From the IMG/VR virus record IMGVR_UViG_3300037506_000165, positions 1-35,608 of that record: a DNA stretch of 35,608 nt; one strand, written 5' to 3'. The notes below the pieces were generated by a model that was not told where the DNA came from, ran no database searches, and saw only the letters and a list, made by a program, of their open reading frames with translations. The DNA comes from a virus (taxonomy: Duplodnaviria; Caudoviricetes). The number at the start of each line of letters is the position of its first letter. The first letter of the stretch is position 1. Below, piece by piece: positions 27,985 through 35,358 of this stretch. The position numbers were made by a program, and so were the translations under genes.

Positions 27985-29100
27985 ATGCCGTCAAAAACCA
28001 TAGAAATCGCCTGCGACATCGCAAGAACGCCGCGAGTCCTGCAAATTGAAGGCATGTTTGACGTGCCGCCCAGCGCGAGGCAAGTGCTCCGCTGGGAAGT
28101 CGATCTGCCGATTGACAACGAGCCGTGGCACATTGGCCTTATCGTTGGACCATCAGGCTCCGGCAAAAGCACAGTCGCGCGGCAGCTATTCGGGCCTTAC
28201 TTGCGAGACGAGCAGAGCTACCAATGGTCAGACACCGAATCTATTGTGGACGGCTTCCCCGAGGATATGCCGACGCATGACCTGGTTGCATTGCTAAGCT
28301 CCATTGGATTCAGCAGCCCGCCAAGCTGGCTTCGGCCTTTCAATAAACTCAGCAAGGGCGAGCAATTCCGCGTGACGGTGGCGCGAATGCTCGCCGAGAA
28401 TCTGCCTCTTGTGGCGTGCGACGAGTTCACGAGCACCGTGGACCGCACGGTGGCGCAAATCTCCAGCGCGGCAATAGCCAAAACCATTCGGCGTCAAGGC
28501 AAGCGCCTGATCGCCATTACCTGCCACGAAGATATTGAAGAGTGGCTACAGCCAGACTGGATGTACAGGCCAAGCGCGAATCAGTTCGCAAGGAGGTCTC
28601 TTCGGCAAAGACCAGCCGTCGAGTTGGAAGTTCACCGCGTCACTGCTGAGGCATGGCCACTCTTTCGTCACCATCACTATCTAGACACCGAACTGCACCC
28701 CATGAGCCAATGCTACATGGCGACATGGAGAGGCAGGCCAGTAGCCTTCTCCTCGTGGCTGAGCTTGATGCTTCGCAGCCGACTGGGATCAGCAAGACGA
28801 GAGCACCGCACTGTCTGTTTGCCTGACTACCAGGGCATCGGCATCGGCAACGCGCTGTCCGACTTCTGCGCCAGCATCCACAAGGCTATGGGGCACAGAG
28901 CCACGTCTACAACATCACACCCAGCCATGATCGCATCCAGGATGCGGTCGCCAAACTGGAAGATGACACGGCCGCCCACGATCGGGCGAAGCTCCAAAAG
29001 CTCGCACTCAAAGCTCAAGCACTCAACCACGCGCATGACGGCCGGCTTCGAGTACGTCGGGCCGTCGGCCTCAACCGAACACGCAAGGGCTCTGTCATGA
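27985..29100 (+). CDS. ABC-type ATPase fused to GNAT acetyltransferase
   Basis: GPSGSGKS, LSKGE, DEFTSTVDR; FRHHHYL, RTVCLPDYQGIGIG. Confidence 0.88.
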   Translation: MPSKTIEIACDIARTPRVLQIEGMFDVPPSARQVLRWEVDLPIDNEPWHIGLIVGPSGSGKSTVARQLFGPYLRDEQSYQWSDTESIVDGFPEDMPTHDLVALLSSIGFSSPPSWLRPFNKLSKGEQFRVTVARMLAENLPLVACDEFTSTVDRTVAQISSAAIAKTIRRQGKRLIAITCHEDIEEWLQPDWMYRPSANQFARRSLRQRPAVELEVHRVTAEAWPLFRHHHYLDTELHPMSQCYMATWRGRPVAFSSWLSLMLRSRLGSARREHRTVCLPDYQGIGIGNALSDFCASIHKAMGHRATSTTSHPAMIASRMRSPNWKMTRPPTIGRSSKSSHSKLKHSTTRMTAGFEYVGPSASTEHARALS

Positions 29101-29573
29101 AGAAAGGCAAGTTCACTGCGGAGGTGCAGGACCGCATCATTGCCGCACTGCAAAGCGGAGCGTTTCTGCACGTTGCAGCCGAAGCAGCCGGAGTCCACCG
29201 TAGCACCATTTGGAACTGGATGAACAGCCCAGGGCGGCGCTACCGCGCCTTTCAGGCGCGAGTCCGTGAAGCCATTGCGCACGCCAGGCTGACAGCCGAA
29301 ATCACCGTATTCAAGGCTGACCCCAAGTTTTGGCTCCGATGCGGCCCAGGCAGGCAACGCTACGACGAGGATGGCCGGCTTGTCGAGGGCTGGACGGAAG
29401 CCGTCAACCCAGAGCAAAAAGAAACACAGCAGGTGAACATCCTGATGTCGCCAGAGTGGGAGGCGATCCGCCTGGCGCTGGAGACAGCACTACACGACAA
29501 CCCAGAAGCATTACAAAAGGTCACGCAAGCCTTGCTGGCCGTCAAGCACCCACCCAAAGCCATCACGGAGTAA
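29097..29573 (+). CDS. HTH protein, terminase small subunit-like
   Basis: FTAEVQDRIIAALQSG...AAEAAGVHRSTIWNWM followed by helical region. Confidence 0.6.
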   Translation: MKKGKFTAEVQDRIIAALQSGAFLHVAAEAAGVHRSTIWNWMNSPGRRYRAFQARVREAIAHARLTAEITVFKADPKFWLRCGPGRQRYDEDGRLVEGWTEAVNPEQKETQQVNILMSPEWEAIRLALETALHDNPEALQKVTQALLAVKHPPKAITE

Positions 29574-30039: not shown

Positions 30040-30120
30040 GATCTCGCCCAAGGGTGACCAACGAGGCCATAATGCGGTTGTGCGGTCCTTGGCGCTGGCT
30101 TGGCGCAGTTGTGCGGCTAT

Positions 30121-30650
30121 TGGCGCTCGGCCCCCCTGTCGGGGGGGGTAAAGAAAAAGAAACCACCACAACCCGACAGCAGCGTGTGGGGTTCTGGCGC
30201 TCAGCCCCAAACCTGCGGTTTGGGGAAAAGAAAGGCCCACGACCGACTGGCCTGCGCTGCGCTGCGGCCGGCCTGGACACACATGTGCGGTGTCTAGCGC
30301 TCGGCCCCCAACCTGCGGTTGGGGGAAAGAGAAACCACAACACCCATCATCCATCCAGCGCATGCGCGGTGCGTAGCGCTGTGGCGCAAATGGGCTGCTA
30401 TTGGCGCTCGGACCCACACCTGCGGTGTGGGGAAGAAGAAAAACCAACGCCCGACTGGCCTGCGCTGCGCTGCGGCCGGCCCGTGCTGCGGTTGTGCGGT
30501 TCTAGCGCCTCAGGCCCGCCCCTCGCCTCCGCCCTGAAGGGCGGAGGACTCGCGGGCGGGTTGCTGCCCTGTCCTAGCGCTCAGTCAGTGCGCCGCGCCC
30601 CGAATTACCGGCCCCTCGCCTCCGCCCTGGCGGGCGGAGGGCTCGGGGCC
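30121..30650. repeat. array of T(A/G)GCGCTC(A/G)G + hairpin + A-rich tract units
   Basis: motif at 30121, 30195, 30295, 30402, 30503 (variant), 30575; 31-nt exact repeat at 30243 and 30451. Confidence 0.85.
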
Positions 30651-31087
30651 GGCGCATCCATGCCCAGCTTGACAGTGCACCCCCTCGCTGCGGGCGTCCA
30701 TGCCCTGCGCTCGGGGGATATAGGCCCGTCCCTGACAATACACCCCGGCGCACGTGTACGGCAACTGACGCGCTGATACCCCCCTTCGGGGGGCTACTTG
30801 CGGTCCCCTCGTGATACTGCAATGACCCTGTCTTTTGAAACGTCACACGCCCCGCTCGCCCCGCCCCTCCGCCCTAGCCCCCAGACGCCCTTACTGCCTG
30901 GCACTAACGCTTAGAACGTCGCGCCCTGGGCGATTGGGGGCGGGCTGCGGGGACGGGGCTTCGCGGGCGGCGGCCGAGGCCGTGAAGGACCAAGGCGCAT
31001 GATTGCGTGGCTACTAAATGGTGGCGCAAAATTGCGAAATGTGAAAATGGCAAATGGGGCAATGGGCGACTGGGGGCGACAGGAGGG

Positions 31088-31558
31088 CTAGGCGTCACAG
31101 GGGCGTGCACCCCGCCGCGACGGAAGAGCGCCCAAAAGTCCGCGAAGGCAGCAGGCACCCACTCGCGCCAAGCCCCGAGCCGAGTGAGCCAGCCGGCATC
31201 GAAAGGCCGAGCACGGGCAAGCGGACCTCAAACGCGCCAGGACGGCAGGTCAGGACGGAGCGGACGAGCGACAGGCCCCCAGAAGAAGCTCACCATGCCA
31301 CAGCGCCAGGCCGAGACGCAGCCAGCACGCACCTCAGGCCGGAGTCCGAGCACAGATCAGCACGGGCTTACACGAGGCAGCCCAGAACAGGTACGCGCAC
31401 TCGCCAGCCTCACGAGCGAACATCGGCACACCCCTGGCGCAACCGGCACAGACACGCCGGCAGCCCCATACCCAGGAGCCGGCAGGCACGCGCGAGCCAG
31501 CGGAGCGAATGGGGACCGAGGCAGGACACACGAGCCGACCAGCGACGACAGGAGCCAT
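31088..31558 (-). pseudogene. frameshifted mirror copy of the SLOG-like gene
   Basis: same GGAGGTGTGTTATG start and GACGCCTAG end as 31992-32444; the ATG frame stops at 31334. Confidence 0.75.
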
Positions 31559-31611
31559 AACACACCTCCACAAGAAAACACAGGCCCAAAACACACACGC
31601 CCCCACGCACC

Positions 31612-31617
31612 ATTATA
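31612..31617 (-). promoter_or_regulatory. TATAAT -10 box present only in the degenerate arm
   Basis: + strand ATTATA; matching position of the intact arm (31938-31943) reads TGTGCG; no good -35. Confidence 0.5.
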
Positions 31618-31991
31618 CCGGCCCGCAATGGTGCTTCCGGATTTCGCGGCTCCAATAGCACATGTAAGCCCGGCCCCAGCAGCGGCATGAGCGGTCGTGG
31701 CCCAGCCCCTCGACGCCGGCCCAGCCCAAGCCACTAGCGCTCAGTCGGGCCTGGGCGGGGATGAGAAAAAATAACAAAAATAAAACCCCGCCCAGGCCCT
31801 TTGTCACCAACGCTGCGGGGCTGGGCCGGCGTCGGGGCTGGGCAACAACAGAATCCCATGGGCGCTCATGCCGCTGCTGGGGCCGGGCTTACAGGGTCCA
31901 GTGGCCGCGAAATCCGTGCTCCACCATTGCGGGCCGGTGTGCGTGGGTCGTGGCGTGTGTGTTTTGGGCCTGTTTTCTTGGGAGGTGTGTT

Positions 31992-32444
31992 ATGGCTCTC
32001 GTCGCTGTGGTCGGCTCGCGTGCCCTGCCTCGGTCCTTCGCTCCGGCTGTCTCGCGGGCCTGCCGGCTCCTGGATGGGGCTGGCCGTCGTGTCTGTACCG
32101 GTTGCGCCAAGGGTGCCGATGCGTTCGCTCGTGAGGCCGGCGTGCGCGTGGACCTGTTCTCGGCTGCCTCGCGTAAGCCCGCTGATCTCCGTGCTCGGAC
32201 TGCCGGCCTGGTGCGTGCGGTGGCTGCGTCCGGGCCTGGCGCTGGCGTGGTGTGCTTCTTCTGGGGGCCTCGCTCGCCTGGCTCCGTCCTGACCTGCCGC
32301 CTGGCGCTTGAGGCCGGCTTGCCCGTGCTCGGCTTCGATGCGAACGGCTGGCTCCCTCGGCTCGGCGATGGCGAGTGGGTGCCCGCTGCCTCCGCTGGCT
32401 TCTGGTCGCTCTTCCGTCGCTGGGTGCCCGCCCCTGACGCCTAG
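31992..32444 (+). CDS. adenine-minimised SLOG/DprA-like Rossmann-fold protein
   Basis: GGAGG RBS; VAVVGSR, TGCAKGAD, LRART, SPGS...A...GLPV match SLOG motifs and the gene at 34375. Confidence 0.8.
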   Translation: MALVAVVGSRALPRSFAPAVSRACRLLDGAGRRVCTGCAKGADAFAREAGVRVDLFSAASRKPADLRARTAGLVRAVAASGPGAGVVCFFWGPRSPGSVLTCRLALEAGLPVLGFDANGWLPRLGDGEWVPAASAGFWSLFRRWVPAPDA

Positions 32445-32517
32445 CCCTCCTGTCGCCCATTCGCCCATCGCCCATTCGCCCTTTTCACTATTTCACACTC
32501 TTGCACAGGAGCTTGTT

Positions 32518-32769
32518 ATGAAACTCGTGGCGCACTGCAAGAAAGAGCGATATGACGTGTATATTGGACACCCCAGCATTTGGGGCAACCCGTTTATTAT
32601 TGGCAGGGACGGCACAAGAGAAGAGGTAATCGCGAAATATAGGGCATGGATCATGCAGCAGCCAGAACTATTGAAGCGAGTCAAAGAGCTGAAAGGCAAG
32701 GTGCTGGGATGTTGGTGCGCGCCACAGGCGTGCCATGGAGATGTATTAGTGGAGTTAGCGAATGAATGA
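32518..32769 (+). CDS. DUF4326 domain protein
   Basis: CAGGAG RBS; DVYIG.PSIWGNPF...REEVIAKY...LKGKVLGCWCAPQACHGDVL. Confidence 0.9.
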   Translation: MKLVAHCKKERYDVYIGHPSIWGNPFIIGRDGTREEVIAKYRAWIMQQPELLKRVKELKGKVLGCWCAPQACHGDVLVELANE

Positions 32770-32772
32770 TAA

Positions 32773-32840
32773 GCGCAATTTCGGCCCAAATCAATGAGGG
32801 CCGAAATTGCTTAGGTTTTGAATGAAAGGAGTGAAAGATG
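32773..32840 (+). repeat. hairpin + RBS cassette leader, copy 1
   Basis: GCAATTTCGGCCC-N10-GGGCCGAAATTGC-TTAGGTTTT..ATGAAAGGAGTGAA..ATG. Confidence 0.85.
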
Positions 32841-33197
32841 AACGTATTTGTGTTTGGATCGAACACTGAAGGTAGGCATGGCAAAGGTGCAGCGCTTGAA
32901 GCAAGAATGAAACACGGAGCCATCTACGGCCAAGCAGAAGGACGACAAGGCGATAGCTACGCAATCCCCACAAAGGAGCTGCGCAGCTGGATGCCGCCCG
33001 TTACACTGCAAGACATCGATCGCGCCGTTCAGAAGTTCCTCCTCTATGCTAAACAACACCCAAGCACCGAATTCATCCTAACGCCCATAGGCTGCGGCCT
33101 TGCAGGATTCAAGCCCGAACAAATTGCTCCAATGTTTCACGATGCCCCACCCAACGTCAAGCTGCCCAATGAATTCCTGAAGATACTCAGTAAGTAG
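32838..33197 (+). CDS. macro-domain-like phage protein (A1S_2505-like)
   Basis: VFVFGSNTEGRHGKGAA...SYAIPTK...TPIGCGLAG. Confidence 0.85.
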   Translation: MNVFVFGSNTEGRHGKGAALEARMKHGAIYGQAEGRQGDSYAIPTKELRSWMPPVTLQDIDRAVQKFLLYAKQHPSTEFILTPIGCGLAGFKPEQIAPMFHDAPPNVKLPNEFLKILSK

Positions 33198-33198
33198 G

Positions 33199-33266
33199 GC
33201 GCGATTTCGGCCCAGAAAAATGAGGGCCGAAATCGCTTAGGTTTTAAATGAAAGGAGTGAACAATG
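33199..33266 (+). repeat. hairpin + RBS cassette leader, copy 2
   Basis: GCGATTTCGGCCC-N10-GGGCCGAAATCGC-TTAGGTTTT..ATGAAAGGAGTGAA..ATG. Confidence 0.85.
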
Positions 33267-33446
33267 AACAAGTTTAGAACGTCTAGAACAGCCTTGATGG
33301 AAGTAAATGAAGAAACGTGGAACAGACTGATGAATAGAAACAGCGGGCTAGGAGAGCCAGCACACGCTCTAGTGTGGCAAGACGAAGAATTTGACTATCG
33401 CGACAAAGAGTTGCCGCGATTTGACAACAAGAGGAGTGCACGATGA
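33264..33446 (+). CDS. small hypothetical protein
   Basis: AAAGGAG RBS from the repeated leader; ATGA overlap. Confidence 0.55.
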   Translation: MNKFRTSRTALMEVNEETWNRLMNRNSGLGEPAHALVWQDEEFDYRDKELPRFDNKRSAR

Positions 33447-33688
33447 ATCCAACTGTGAAGCCGATCAGCATTCAGCTAATCCCAGGACTGCAAGTCATCC
33501 CGTGGACAGGCGTCGCGTGGGCTGGACCGCTGCAACTGGTCCAAGACCTGGGACAAAACTACTGGCTCGTCCAATACTGCTCCACTGGACGCAAAGCCAA
33601 GCTGCGCATACAACCAGGATCACTCATAGCTACCACACAAGGCTACAGGCCCTGGATGTGGCACGCAATTGCCATCCACGGCGCTTGA
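33443..33688 (+). CDS. hypothetical protein
   Basis: GAGGAG RBS. Confidence 0.55.
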   Translation: MNPTVKPISIQLIPGLQVIPWTGVAWAGPLQLVQDLGQNYWLVQYCSTGRKAKLRIQPGSLIATTQGYRPWMWHAIAIHGA

Positions 33689-34374: not shown

Positions 34375-35358
34375 ATGAAAACAACAGTGCTATTCACCGA
34401 GCAAAGTGCCCACATATTCACCTGTCGCACCTGCCTCAAGCGCCGCAAAAAGGCACAACGGCGCAAGACGCAGTATCCTATCAAGCCAACCAAGCTCGCC
34501 GTTGTCGGCTCCAGGGCCTACCCGAACTTGGAACTTGTCGAGGAGTTTATCGCTTCTCTGCCGCCCCACATTGACACCATCGTATCGGGCGGGGCCGCAG
34601 GAGTAGACACTACCGCTGAGATCGCCGCCAGGGCTCGCGGATTGAACGTCATCACCATTCGCCCAAACTGGAAAGCATTCGGACGGTACGCCGGCTTCGC
34701 ACGCAACGCGCTAATCGTCAAAGAAGCCCACAAGGTCATCGCATTCTGGGACACCGAAAGCAAAGGCACGCTCCACACGATCCACCTCGCACAAAAGGTC
34801 AACAAGCTACACCGCGTCATCGGGCCCGACGGCGAGACTGTCACCGAAATACCCAAAGAAGCCCTTTCAGAACAAGAAAAACAACAGGTCAGCCGCATAA
34901 CCCACGCCAGTCTGGCAAAAATGACCATGCTCTTCGGCGAATTCCAAGGACTGCCTTTTGACCAGGTGCCGCTTACCTACCTGGACTGGCTGTGCAACCA
35001 AGAATGGTTCACCGGCAAAGCTCGCATCTACACCGAAATGTACCTCTCGCATCCCACCATCCAGCGCGAGTTGGAGCAAGAACGCATCGAAGCTGCACAA
35101 AACAAGGGCTGGGTCAAACACCGCTTCGGGTTCCACTACGTATCAAACTGGACCGAGATAGCCGAAGATGAGGGCTGGCAAGCCTTCACAAGTCAACCAC
35201 CGCCAGCCAGGCAGACAAACCCACACCCAGACCCAGACTGGAAAGAACTGCGATACCTCAACCCGGCCGAACGCGACGCTTCAAGGCAAGCAGTAACCGT
35301 CTACCTGGCACTGATCGCCAAGCAAGACGTCCAAAACCACGTGGGCGCCTACATCTGA
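34375..35358 (+). CDS. SLOG family (YspA/DUF2493-like) protein with DUF3820-like domain
   Basis: LAVVGSR, IVSGGAAGVD, RNALIV, AFWDTESKGT; later MLFGEFQG...VPLTYLDWL. Confidence 0.85.
   Translation: MKTTVLFTEQSAHIFTCRTCLKRRKKAQRRKTQYPIKPTKLAVVGSRAYPNLELVEEFIASLPPHIDTIVSGGAAGVDTTAEIAARARGLNVITIRPNWKAFGRYAGFARNALIVKEAHKVIAFWDTESKGTLHTIHLAQKVNKLHRVIGPDGETVTEIPKEALSEQEKQQVSRITHASLAKMTMLFGEFQGLPFDQVPLTYLDWLCNQEWFTGKARIYTEMYLSHPTIQRELEQERIEAAQNKGWVKHRFGFHYVSNWTEIAEDEGWQAFTSQPPPARQTNPHPDPDWKELRYLNPAERDASRQAVTVYLALIAKQDVQNHVGAYI

Follow-up and report, generated by a model that had tools for sequence, protein, structure and literature searches.

The window, that is, the whole 35.6-kb stretch of DNA that was analysed, is a tailed-phage fragment about 34% complete, which carries integrase, terminase, portal and capsid genes as well as genes for a PD-(D/E)XK exonuclease and a Sak4-like annealase, all of its recognised genes being directed rightward. 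The features of the locus under study, where an adenine-minimised gene lies in one arm of a long imperfect fold-back, are collected in Table 1.

Table 1. Coordinates of the adenine-minimised gene, the fold-back and neighbouring features in the window.
Feature	Position	Strand	Remarks
Terminase small subunit-like gene (terS)	29097..29573	+	phrog_4102; marks the likely genome-end (pac) neighbourhood
Gene-free block with repeated small GC hairpins and three CATCCATG-like motifs	30068..30970	.	Between terS and fold-back; candidate single-strand or packaging signal
Fold-back left arm: inverted copy of leader and gene	31030..31760	-	~80% identical; alignment
Frameshifted gene copy	31088..31558	-	471 nt, 83% identical, 24 A, internal stops; alignment
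TATAAT (-10 consensus), copy arm only	31612..31617	-	Unpaired versus gene-arm 31938-31943; bulge/bubble on folded bottom strand
Fold-back loop	31761..31785	.	25 nt, A/T-rich; inverted-repeat analysis
Fold-back right arm: leader, gene, 3' tail	31786..32500	+	A-poor from 31927
Shine-Dalgarno GGAGG	31981..31985	+	6 nt before ATG of the A-minimised gene; sequence
A-minimised gene, 150-aa DprA-like SLOG protein (P0001)	31992..32444	+	Sequence, structure model
DUF4326 gene	32518..32769	+	PF14216, E 3e-28; ordinary A content
Macro-like gene	32838..33197	+	Weak Macro and DarG matches; ordinary A content
Second SLOG gene (YspA/DprA-like)	34375..35358	+	28.5% A

The A-minimised gene has 453 nt, with 160 C, 166 G, 106 T and only 21 A (4.6%), exactly the adenine count that a preliminary description of this DNA had given. 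The complete set of A-bearing codons is one ATG, seven Asp, three Thr, two Lys (AAG), three Glu (GAG), one Asn and the TAG stop. None of the 151 third codon positions holds A, and checking codon by codon confirmed the earlier statement that all 21 are forced by the protein. It also holds that Ile, Gln, His and Tyr are absent from the product, and the segment 32200-32291 (92 nt), already described as A-free, proved to be the longest such run in the window. The per-gene adenine content, whose computation had been suggested, is 23-34% in the 28 other tabulated ORFs of the window. For the same protein, 61 A would be expected under the codon usage of 25 window genes, the 117 four-fold sites of the gene have no A, and the chance of finding a minimum-A codon at every position is about 10^-22; the purge of adenine is real and goes far beyond chance. 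As many as 13 of the 21 adenines sit in a GA context, which is also that of the gene's own Shine-Dalgarno, and GANA is absent from the gene. The predicted structure of the message alone is ordinary (-245 versus -247 ± 9 for shuffles). The preliminary description falls short of the locus in one respect: the A-poor tract already begins before the ORF, and the gene makes up the right arm of an imperfect, 1.5-kb fold-back.

Concerning the fold-back, its predicted DNA fold reaches -811 kcal/mol for the bottom strand versus -770 for the top one. The bulges of the gene copy are periodic, have 2-3 nt and consist mostly of TG, GT or GA. The copy differs from the gene by 26 substitutions and 29 indels, three of the substitutions falling at an A of the gene and five at an A of the copy, and this untranslated copy has gained eight new A. 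The template/variable pair (TR/VR) of a diversity-generating retroelement was considered and rejected, as the repeat is inverted and its differences are not concentrated at adenines. Both arms and the loop are present, with zero substituted bases, in another, independent assembly, whose sample may be the same. The unitig depth halves across 30452-33500 (left arm 13.8, loop 6.7, right arm 7.1), which may be due to library bias at the hairpin, to a genome end or to a mixed population. The suggestion that homologs might also sit in gene-length fold-backs failed, given that an inverted gene copy was found in 0 of 72 loci with at least 1.3 kb upstream (loci including the best 80 of 141 metagenome matches). 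The gene-length fold-back is seen on one contig and hence offers no covariation evidence.

The mismatches of the fold-back look selected. The longest perfect run within the gene pairing is 19 bp, versus 32 by random placement (P 0.005), and 17 of the 29 indels between the arms have a length of 2 nt. In the copy arm, 16 bulges of 2-3 nt occur every ~31 bp with a spacing CV of 0.25, a regularity reached by 0 of 5000 random sets, the spacings being mostly 26-28 and 36-38 bp. Moreover, a gene-arm bulge follows 7-9 bp after 9 of these 16 bulges (0 of 20000 random), and this relation holds under four alignment settings. Helical (10.5-bp) phasing of the bulges was rejected (P 0.99). Substitutions yielding G.T pairs favour the bottom (template) strand over the top one by 17 to 2 (P 0.0007), a bias that may represent selection on pairing or deamination of the exposed bottom strand, and that may only mirror the genome-wide strand asymmetry; the bias is absent in the short hairpins of the relatives (bottom 36, top 40). 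In the window, the coding-strand four-fold sites have 26% A, 12% T, 43% C and 19% G, which makes the template strand rich in G+T, the outcome expected if an exposed strand is deaminated. This asymmetry (A>T and C>G on the coding strand) is window-wide and is the reverse of the usual leading-strand pattern.

Several other features surround the locus. The stretch 30068-30520, just downstream of terS, contains four to six repeats of ~100 nt, each made of a GC hairpin, whose short loop is always the same, and a tail rich in A, and a search of the block 30450-31030 against plasmids gave no meaningful match. Clusters like those of CATCCATG are found in about 4 of 39 relatives. A second gene-free block (400-680), with small hairpins, tandem repeats and three CATCCATG/CATCCGTG motifs, resembles the 30450-31000 block and precedes early-type genes (ASCH, MazG-like, DUF1257, DUF2997 and AAA ATPase). 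Downstream of the fold-back, 32773-32843 and 33199-33269 are 71-nt direct repeats, 89% alike, each with a 36-nt hairpin followed by a Shine-Dalgarno and placed before successive genes. No relaxase or rolling-circle initiator was found in the window fragment (34% complete). The second SLOG gene is an internal control, since its adenine content indicates that the SLOG fold does not need an A-poor gene. An early setting, with a role in counter-defence, is made plausible by the DUF4326, macro-like and YspA-SLOG neighbours and by the ssDNA-promoter-like hairpin that 17 of 34 homolog loci have where the tract starts.

The SLOG motifs and DprA-like fold proposed beforehand for the encoded protein were corroborated by AlphaFold, Foldseek, Z scores and the family profile. 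The AlphaFold model of P0001 (pLDDT 97) is a SLOG domain whose best structural match is 3maj (Z 13.2, rmsd 2.9 Å over 131 residues), with Z 12.6 for 4ljk and with 8zva and 4ljk as top Foldseek matches. The best matches are DprA proteins and ShosA, other SLOG folds lying within 1-2 Z units, and the family profile matches the DprA structure 3uqz by sequence (E 2e-10). P0001 itself gives 20.7 bits with PF02481, below the Pfam gathering threshold of 29.6, and 20 of 40 family members match this profile at E <= 0.01. PF10686 (YAcAr/YspA) gave no match for P0001 at E <= 0.1 and none among the 40 members at E <= 0.01. The motifs GSR, G-x-D, R and S-G-S align with DprA; R10, R69 and G97 align with its GTR, RNR and SGS motifs, and the Asn position is occupied by Thr. 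According to the available text of PMC3950713, the ssDNA pocket of HpDprA is formed by R52, Y108, K137, F140, R143, N144 and G164. P0001 is a short form without the middle segment that carries other DNA-contacting DprA residues. It is a DprA-like SLOG domain by its model and is not filed here as DprA, because it falls below the Pfam cut-off and part of the DNA-contacting segment is missing. As predicted from the structure, it may work like a DprA-type binder of nucleotides or ssDNA. The protein has no C-terminal Q-x-x-LF tail; this tail, which we take to resemble a sliding-clamp motif, is present in many relatives (25/51).

A full HMMER search returned 148 relatives, and a word-index protein search returned P0001 only. 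The 116 loci used comprise 5 of 6 plasmid matches, 16 viral and 15 genome loci, and the best 80 of 141 metagenome matches; one more viral locus turned out to repeat a contig of this set. With these metagenome loci included, the relatives form 58 clusters at 75% identity with a median of 1.7% A, which answers positively the question of whether the homologous genes are also A-free; 47 of 58 clusters have <=5% A and 55 have <=10%, a share that is overstated, as the search seeds were A-poor members. The window gene, with its ATG and GGAGG, is laxer than most of them, 47/58 clusters having less A. In the relatives, the A-poor tract extends upstream by 150-1000 nt and takes in one to three further ORFs. 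In the set with the best 80 of 141 metagenome matches, A stays at 0.5-0.8% up to a point 30 nt before the stop, whereas the first 30 nt past the stop have 21% (36 clusters), GGGGG, an A-free Shine-Dalgarno, is combined with GTG at 14 of 23 initiation sites, and the A-requiring residues among 101 proteins of <=230 aa make up <10% in 44 and >=25% in 24. TGA stops are avoided (11/68 versus 43/105), four-fold A is purged most after G (0.04 of background, versus 0.10-0.16), G, T and C take the place of purged A without distinction, and most of the remaining A belongs to stops and to codons for conserved Asp and Gln. Some operons of 2-4 ORFs and 1.1-1.7 kb have A almost only in their stops (L005:5037-6300, L027:1-1700 and L015:4990-6730). 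The upstream ORFs of the A-free operons belong to two conserved families of small proteins without an assigned role, one of them with 223 matches. The partner ORF encodes a small alpha/beta domain (pLDDT 84, best Z 6.2) with no Pfam, PHROG or PADLOC match, and it is absent in front of the window gene. Some relatives, P0012 and P0023, were judged by eye to be fused to DUF4326-like domains.

At the start of the A-poor tract, a hairpin above the 95th percentile of 105 control positions was found in 17 of the 34 clusters whose loci have enough flank (best 80 of 141 metagenome matches); the other 17 have no such hairpin, and several of those found differ in shape. The reverse complement of the left arm has the better promoter score in 12 of the 17 hairpin loci, with hand-set score weights, and seven relatives (L005, L011, L074, L077, L083, L089 and L096) combine a TTG-type -35 with a one-arm -10-like hexamer. 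Near-perfect inverted repeats of 30-35 bp, with a shape unlike that of the promoter-like hairpins, lie at the tract start in L017:4920-5120 and L090:650-720. In the flanks of the relatives, GC skew is negative in 28/41 and AT skew positive in 35/41, so that the template strand is G+T-rich, and the first downstream gene is co-oriented in 37/42 clusters, with DUF932 and Gp157 as recurrent genes (both counts with the best 80 of 141 metagenome matches). A neighbour family present in five loci (L041:161-2062) matches weakly a eukaryotic-type RdRP, to be compared with phage single-subunit RNA polymerases. All six plasmid matches were typed as non-mobilizable, and no relaxase or type IV secretion genes are annotated in the almost full records of the four complete plasmids L118-L121, whose annotation is incomplete. 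These plasmids share a YdjM-like and ATPase module, and two of them carry a FimT-like pilin gene, which raises the possibility of spread by transformation or transduction.

Searches for closer relatives were negative: the annotated phage collection held no match to P0001, and neither did the viral scans with P0001, the short-form alignment and the shared leader motif; the terS scan returned one unrelated locus, without an A-poor tract, and no close relative of the phage; and Rfam has no family at the locus. In the full-text literature that was searched, which holds few subscription papers, no A-free bacterial genes, DprA-like family of this kind or whole-gene ssDNA hairpin were found described, although the supplements of leading-region papers may list the proteins, and the label 'droplet hairpin', for DprA-linked hairpins, had no literature match.

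Regarding promoter-like elements, the TATAAT of the copy arm lies ~50 nt upstream of the start codon when positions are counted in hairpin register. A consensus -35 is missing at 16-18 nt from it, and the promoter scan gave no full promoter there. A 7-bp palindrome flanks the TATAAT in the copy arm only (window 31609-31633); it could act as an operator, keeping the leftward promoter silent while the DNA is double-stranded.

The observed adenine purge, fold-back, regular bulges, one-arm TATAAT, SLOG fold and family-wide A-free operons could be connected as follows. The fold-back would likely form when the template (bottom) strand is single-stranded at entry, and, once folded, this strand would offer the host RNA polymerase a gene that is duplex for a time and whose -10 element is open. 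The bottom strand might be exposed most simply by 5'-3' resection of the genome end beside terS, the phage encoding a PD-(D/E)XK exonuclease and a Sak4-like annealase. In double-stranded DNA the gene arm, without a -10, would be silent; on the folded bottom strand, the copy would supply the TATAAT non-template strand and the RNA could be displaced, which resembles Frpo-type promoters, but with a stem that spans the whole gene. The bulges would hold the perfect helices under 20 bp, thereby limiting recombination of the arms, cruciform extrusion and attack by hairpin nucleases. Avoidance of A would let the mRNA escape CmdT-type ADP-ribosylation or A-cutting RNases, and the product may bind ssDNA or an adenine nucleotide derivative via its DprA-type pocket, helping the element to become established. 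The single-stranded read-out of the gene is, on balance, slightly favoured. The full explanation, a whole-gene fold-back read from single-stranded entry DNA together with a message shielded from adenine-directed attack, is tentative and receives a rough probability of 35%. Its most extended form is doubtful: there the gene would be readable as a duplex only while the invading DNA is single-stranded, the scrambled copy would be its non-template strand, the staggered-bulge unit may dock the encoded DprA-like protein, the three-letter message would be untouchable by adenine-directed defence, and the whole would be an extension of ssDNA promoters to an entire gene in phages, acting also as an end-resection sensor within a widespread class of A-free operons.

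The preliminary description had proposed selection for an A-free mRNA or a T-free template, and this is supported, because the purge is shared by the homologs, has its border at the stop codon and spares only those A that cannot be avoided. Between the two, the evidence leans to a pressure on the message, of the CmdT kind, because the border is at the stop codon, the Shine-Dalgarno is rewritten, TGA and silent-site GA are avoided, the untranslated copy regained A, and the silent sites stay at zero though the template would be paired. CmdT is reported to target GA in single-stranded RNA, leaving double-stranded RNA unmodified (PMC11618068, in its available part). A GA-specific enemy should punish GA most, yet GA holds most of the adenines left in the gene, which counts against the CmdT step. 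CpG decay could account for the excess of residual A that follows C, and control of read-through for the preference for TAG. With the same single-stranded read-out, the purge could instead shield the template, the T-free strand escaping DarT-like thymine lesions and the whole-gene hairpin being a second hiding of template T. The tract starting at an ssDNA-type hairpin with the leader included, GA (template TC) as the most purged context, a gene without GANA that is laxer than most relatives while protected by its hairpin, the macro-like gene with its weak DarG match downstream, and the Q-x-x-LF ends of relatives, which point to work on DNA, would all suit this explanation. DarT is reported to modify the second T of TNTC in single-stranded but not double-stranded DNA (PMC5179494). 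This requirement weakens the simple DarT reading, because A is purged in all contexts and the purge persists, third positions being at zero, though the template would be paired and mutation runs toward A; the absence of GANA is expected from so few A. Shielding of the template is unlikely. An escape of the T-free template from DprA coating is a weak idea, HpDprA binding dC like dT (PMC3950713, available text).

The operon could also have been written for transcription under an ATP drain, as imposed by an ATP nucleosidase or deaminase defence, each A being an equal elongation cost. The context-independent purge from leader to last stop, the GTG starts and the A-free Shine-Dalgarno agree with it, but the GA, AC and TGA context effects are not predicted, and an A-free message gains little, as translation requires ATP for tRNA charging; we regard this as quite unlikely, even though characterised SLOG enzymes act on adenine nucleotides (PMC9503650, as far as its available text goes). 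It is improbable that the fold-back acts in RNA, where rightward read-through would pair the copy arm with the message, silenced or stored as bulged dsRNA ignored by RNase III and single-strand-specific toxins. Read-through from terS would indeed cross both arms, as all window genes run rightward, the helices are under 20 bp and CmdT spares double-stranded RNA; however, the wobble pairs favour the other strand, the tract start of the relatives is a promoter-like hairpin rather than an antisense arm, and the TATAAT of the copy is left unexplained. Very improbable is a mutational loss, by which an adenine-specific mutator (a DGR-like reverse transcriptase or a deaminase) would have erased A wherever the protein tolerates it, as the survival of A mainly in stops and conserved Asp and Gln codons might suggest: the border is the stop codon and not a terminator, lost A becomes G, T and C alike, no reverse transcriptase appeared among 41 recurrent neighbour-cluster representatives or the scanned window ORFs, and the arms differ by indels and C/T changes that are not A-specific. 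It is hardly probable that only the A-poor gene matters, the left arm being an artefact of assembly or an inverted duplication in neutral decay; the single contig and the unequal unitig depth between arms would fit, but the independent assembly (maybe of the same sample) has both arms and the loop, and evenly spaced, paired 2-nt bulges are unlike neutral decay. Further causes were discarded as well: a weak RNA:DNA hybrid, as G at four-fold sites is not avoided; restriction avoidance, as G/C-only palindromes remain (22 four-base sites in the gene); and, by reasoning, primase-site avoidance, as priming within the operon would leave the upstream hairpin intact. Avoidance of UV dimers is unlikely, AA being kept in Lys codons and TAA stops.

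The removal of one base from whole operons, and of nine amino acids from folded proteins, points to a strong and common adenine- or thymine-directed pressure at the entry of mobile DNA. The fold-back may be regarded as a natural design for transient expression from ssDNA, and also for long imperfect palindromes that remain stable; in laboratory strains, A-free cassettes might be used as expression units that resist defence. Furthermore, plasmids for which no transfer system is annotated are flagged by the A-free family as possibly spreading via a single-stranded stage. The A-free operons are a widespread class for which no description was found in the literature searched, and what is new in the window is the fold-back, regularly bulged and spanning the whole gene.

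Frpo-type promoters are described as folding in ssDNA and being silent in duplex (PMC11541004, PMC12672017, available parts). Like them and the related ssi elements (see also 10.64898/2026.01.09.698686), an imperfect template-strand hairpin would here rebuild promoter elements, with co-oriented early genes downstream in most clusters of relatives. A long imperfect template-strand hairpin upstream of a gene is present in the window and in half of the relatives (17/34), whereas -35 and -10 boxes in the stem occur together in seven relatives and the window has TATAAT without a consensus -35. The Frpo/ssi hairpins, as far as described in those sources, are intergenic, upstream of genes in conjugative leading regions, while that of the window includes the whole coding sequence; their carriers also differ, being here a tailed-phage contig and, for relatives, four complete plasmids without an annotated relaxase. 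Base exclusion is not mentioned in the available portions of the Frpo papers (PMC11541004, PMC12672017). By analogy, the design would be new in placing a whole gene in an ssDNA-type hairpin that works like an ssDNA promoter system. With DprA/Smf (PF02481) and the defence antitoxin ShosA, P0001 shares the SLOG fold and the aligned GSR, G-x-D, R and S-G-S motifs, but it is a stand-alone 150-aa domain in a mobile-element context, has Thr/Ser at the N144 position, and about ten amino acids suffice in many of its relatives. Viral clusters of YspA-like SLOG, Macro and DUF4326 genes have been proposed to counter NAD+/ADP-ribose defences (PMC9503650, available text). The same kinds of genes lie directly downstream of P0001, which nevertheless matches PF02481 and not PF10686, and these neighbours are ordinary in A.

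Avoidance of target sites is well known, as in ACA-less messages under MazF or the avoidance of restriction sites, and biosynthetic genes are known to spare their cognate element or amino acid. Motif depletion has also been described in leading regions (10.1101/2025.04.03.647016, available part). The likeness lies in the loss, from a sequence, of whatever an enemy or a shortage would act on; here, however, a whole base is lost from one strand of an operon, at the cost of nine amino acids, ATG and the standard Shine-Dalgarno.
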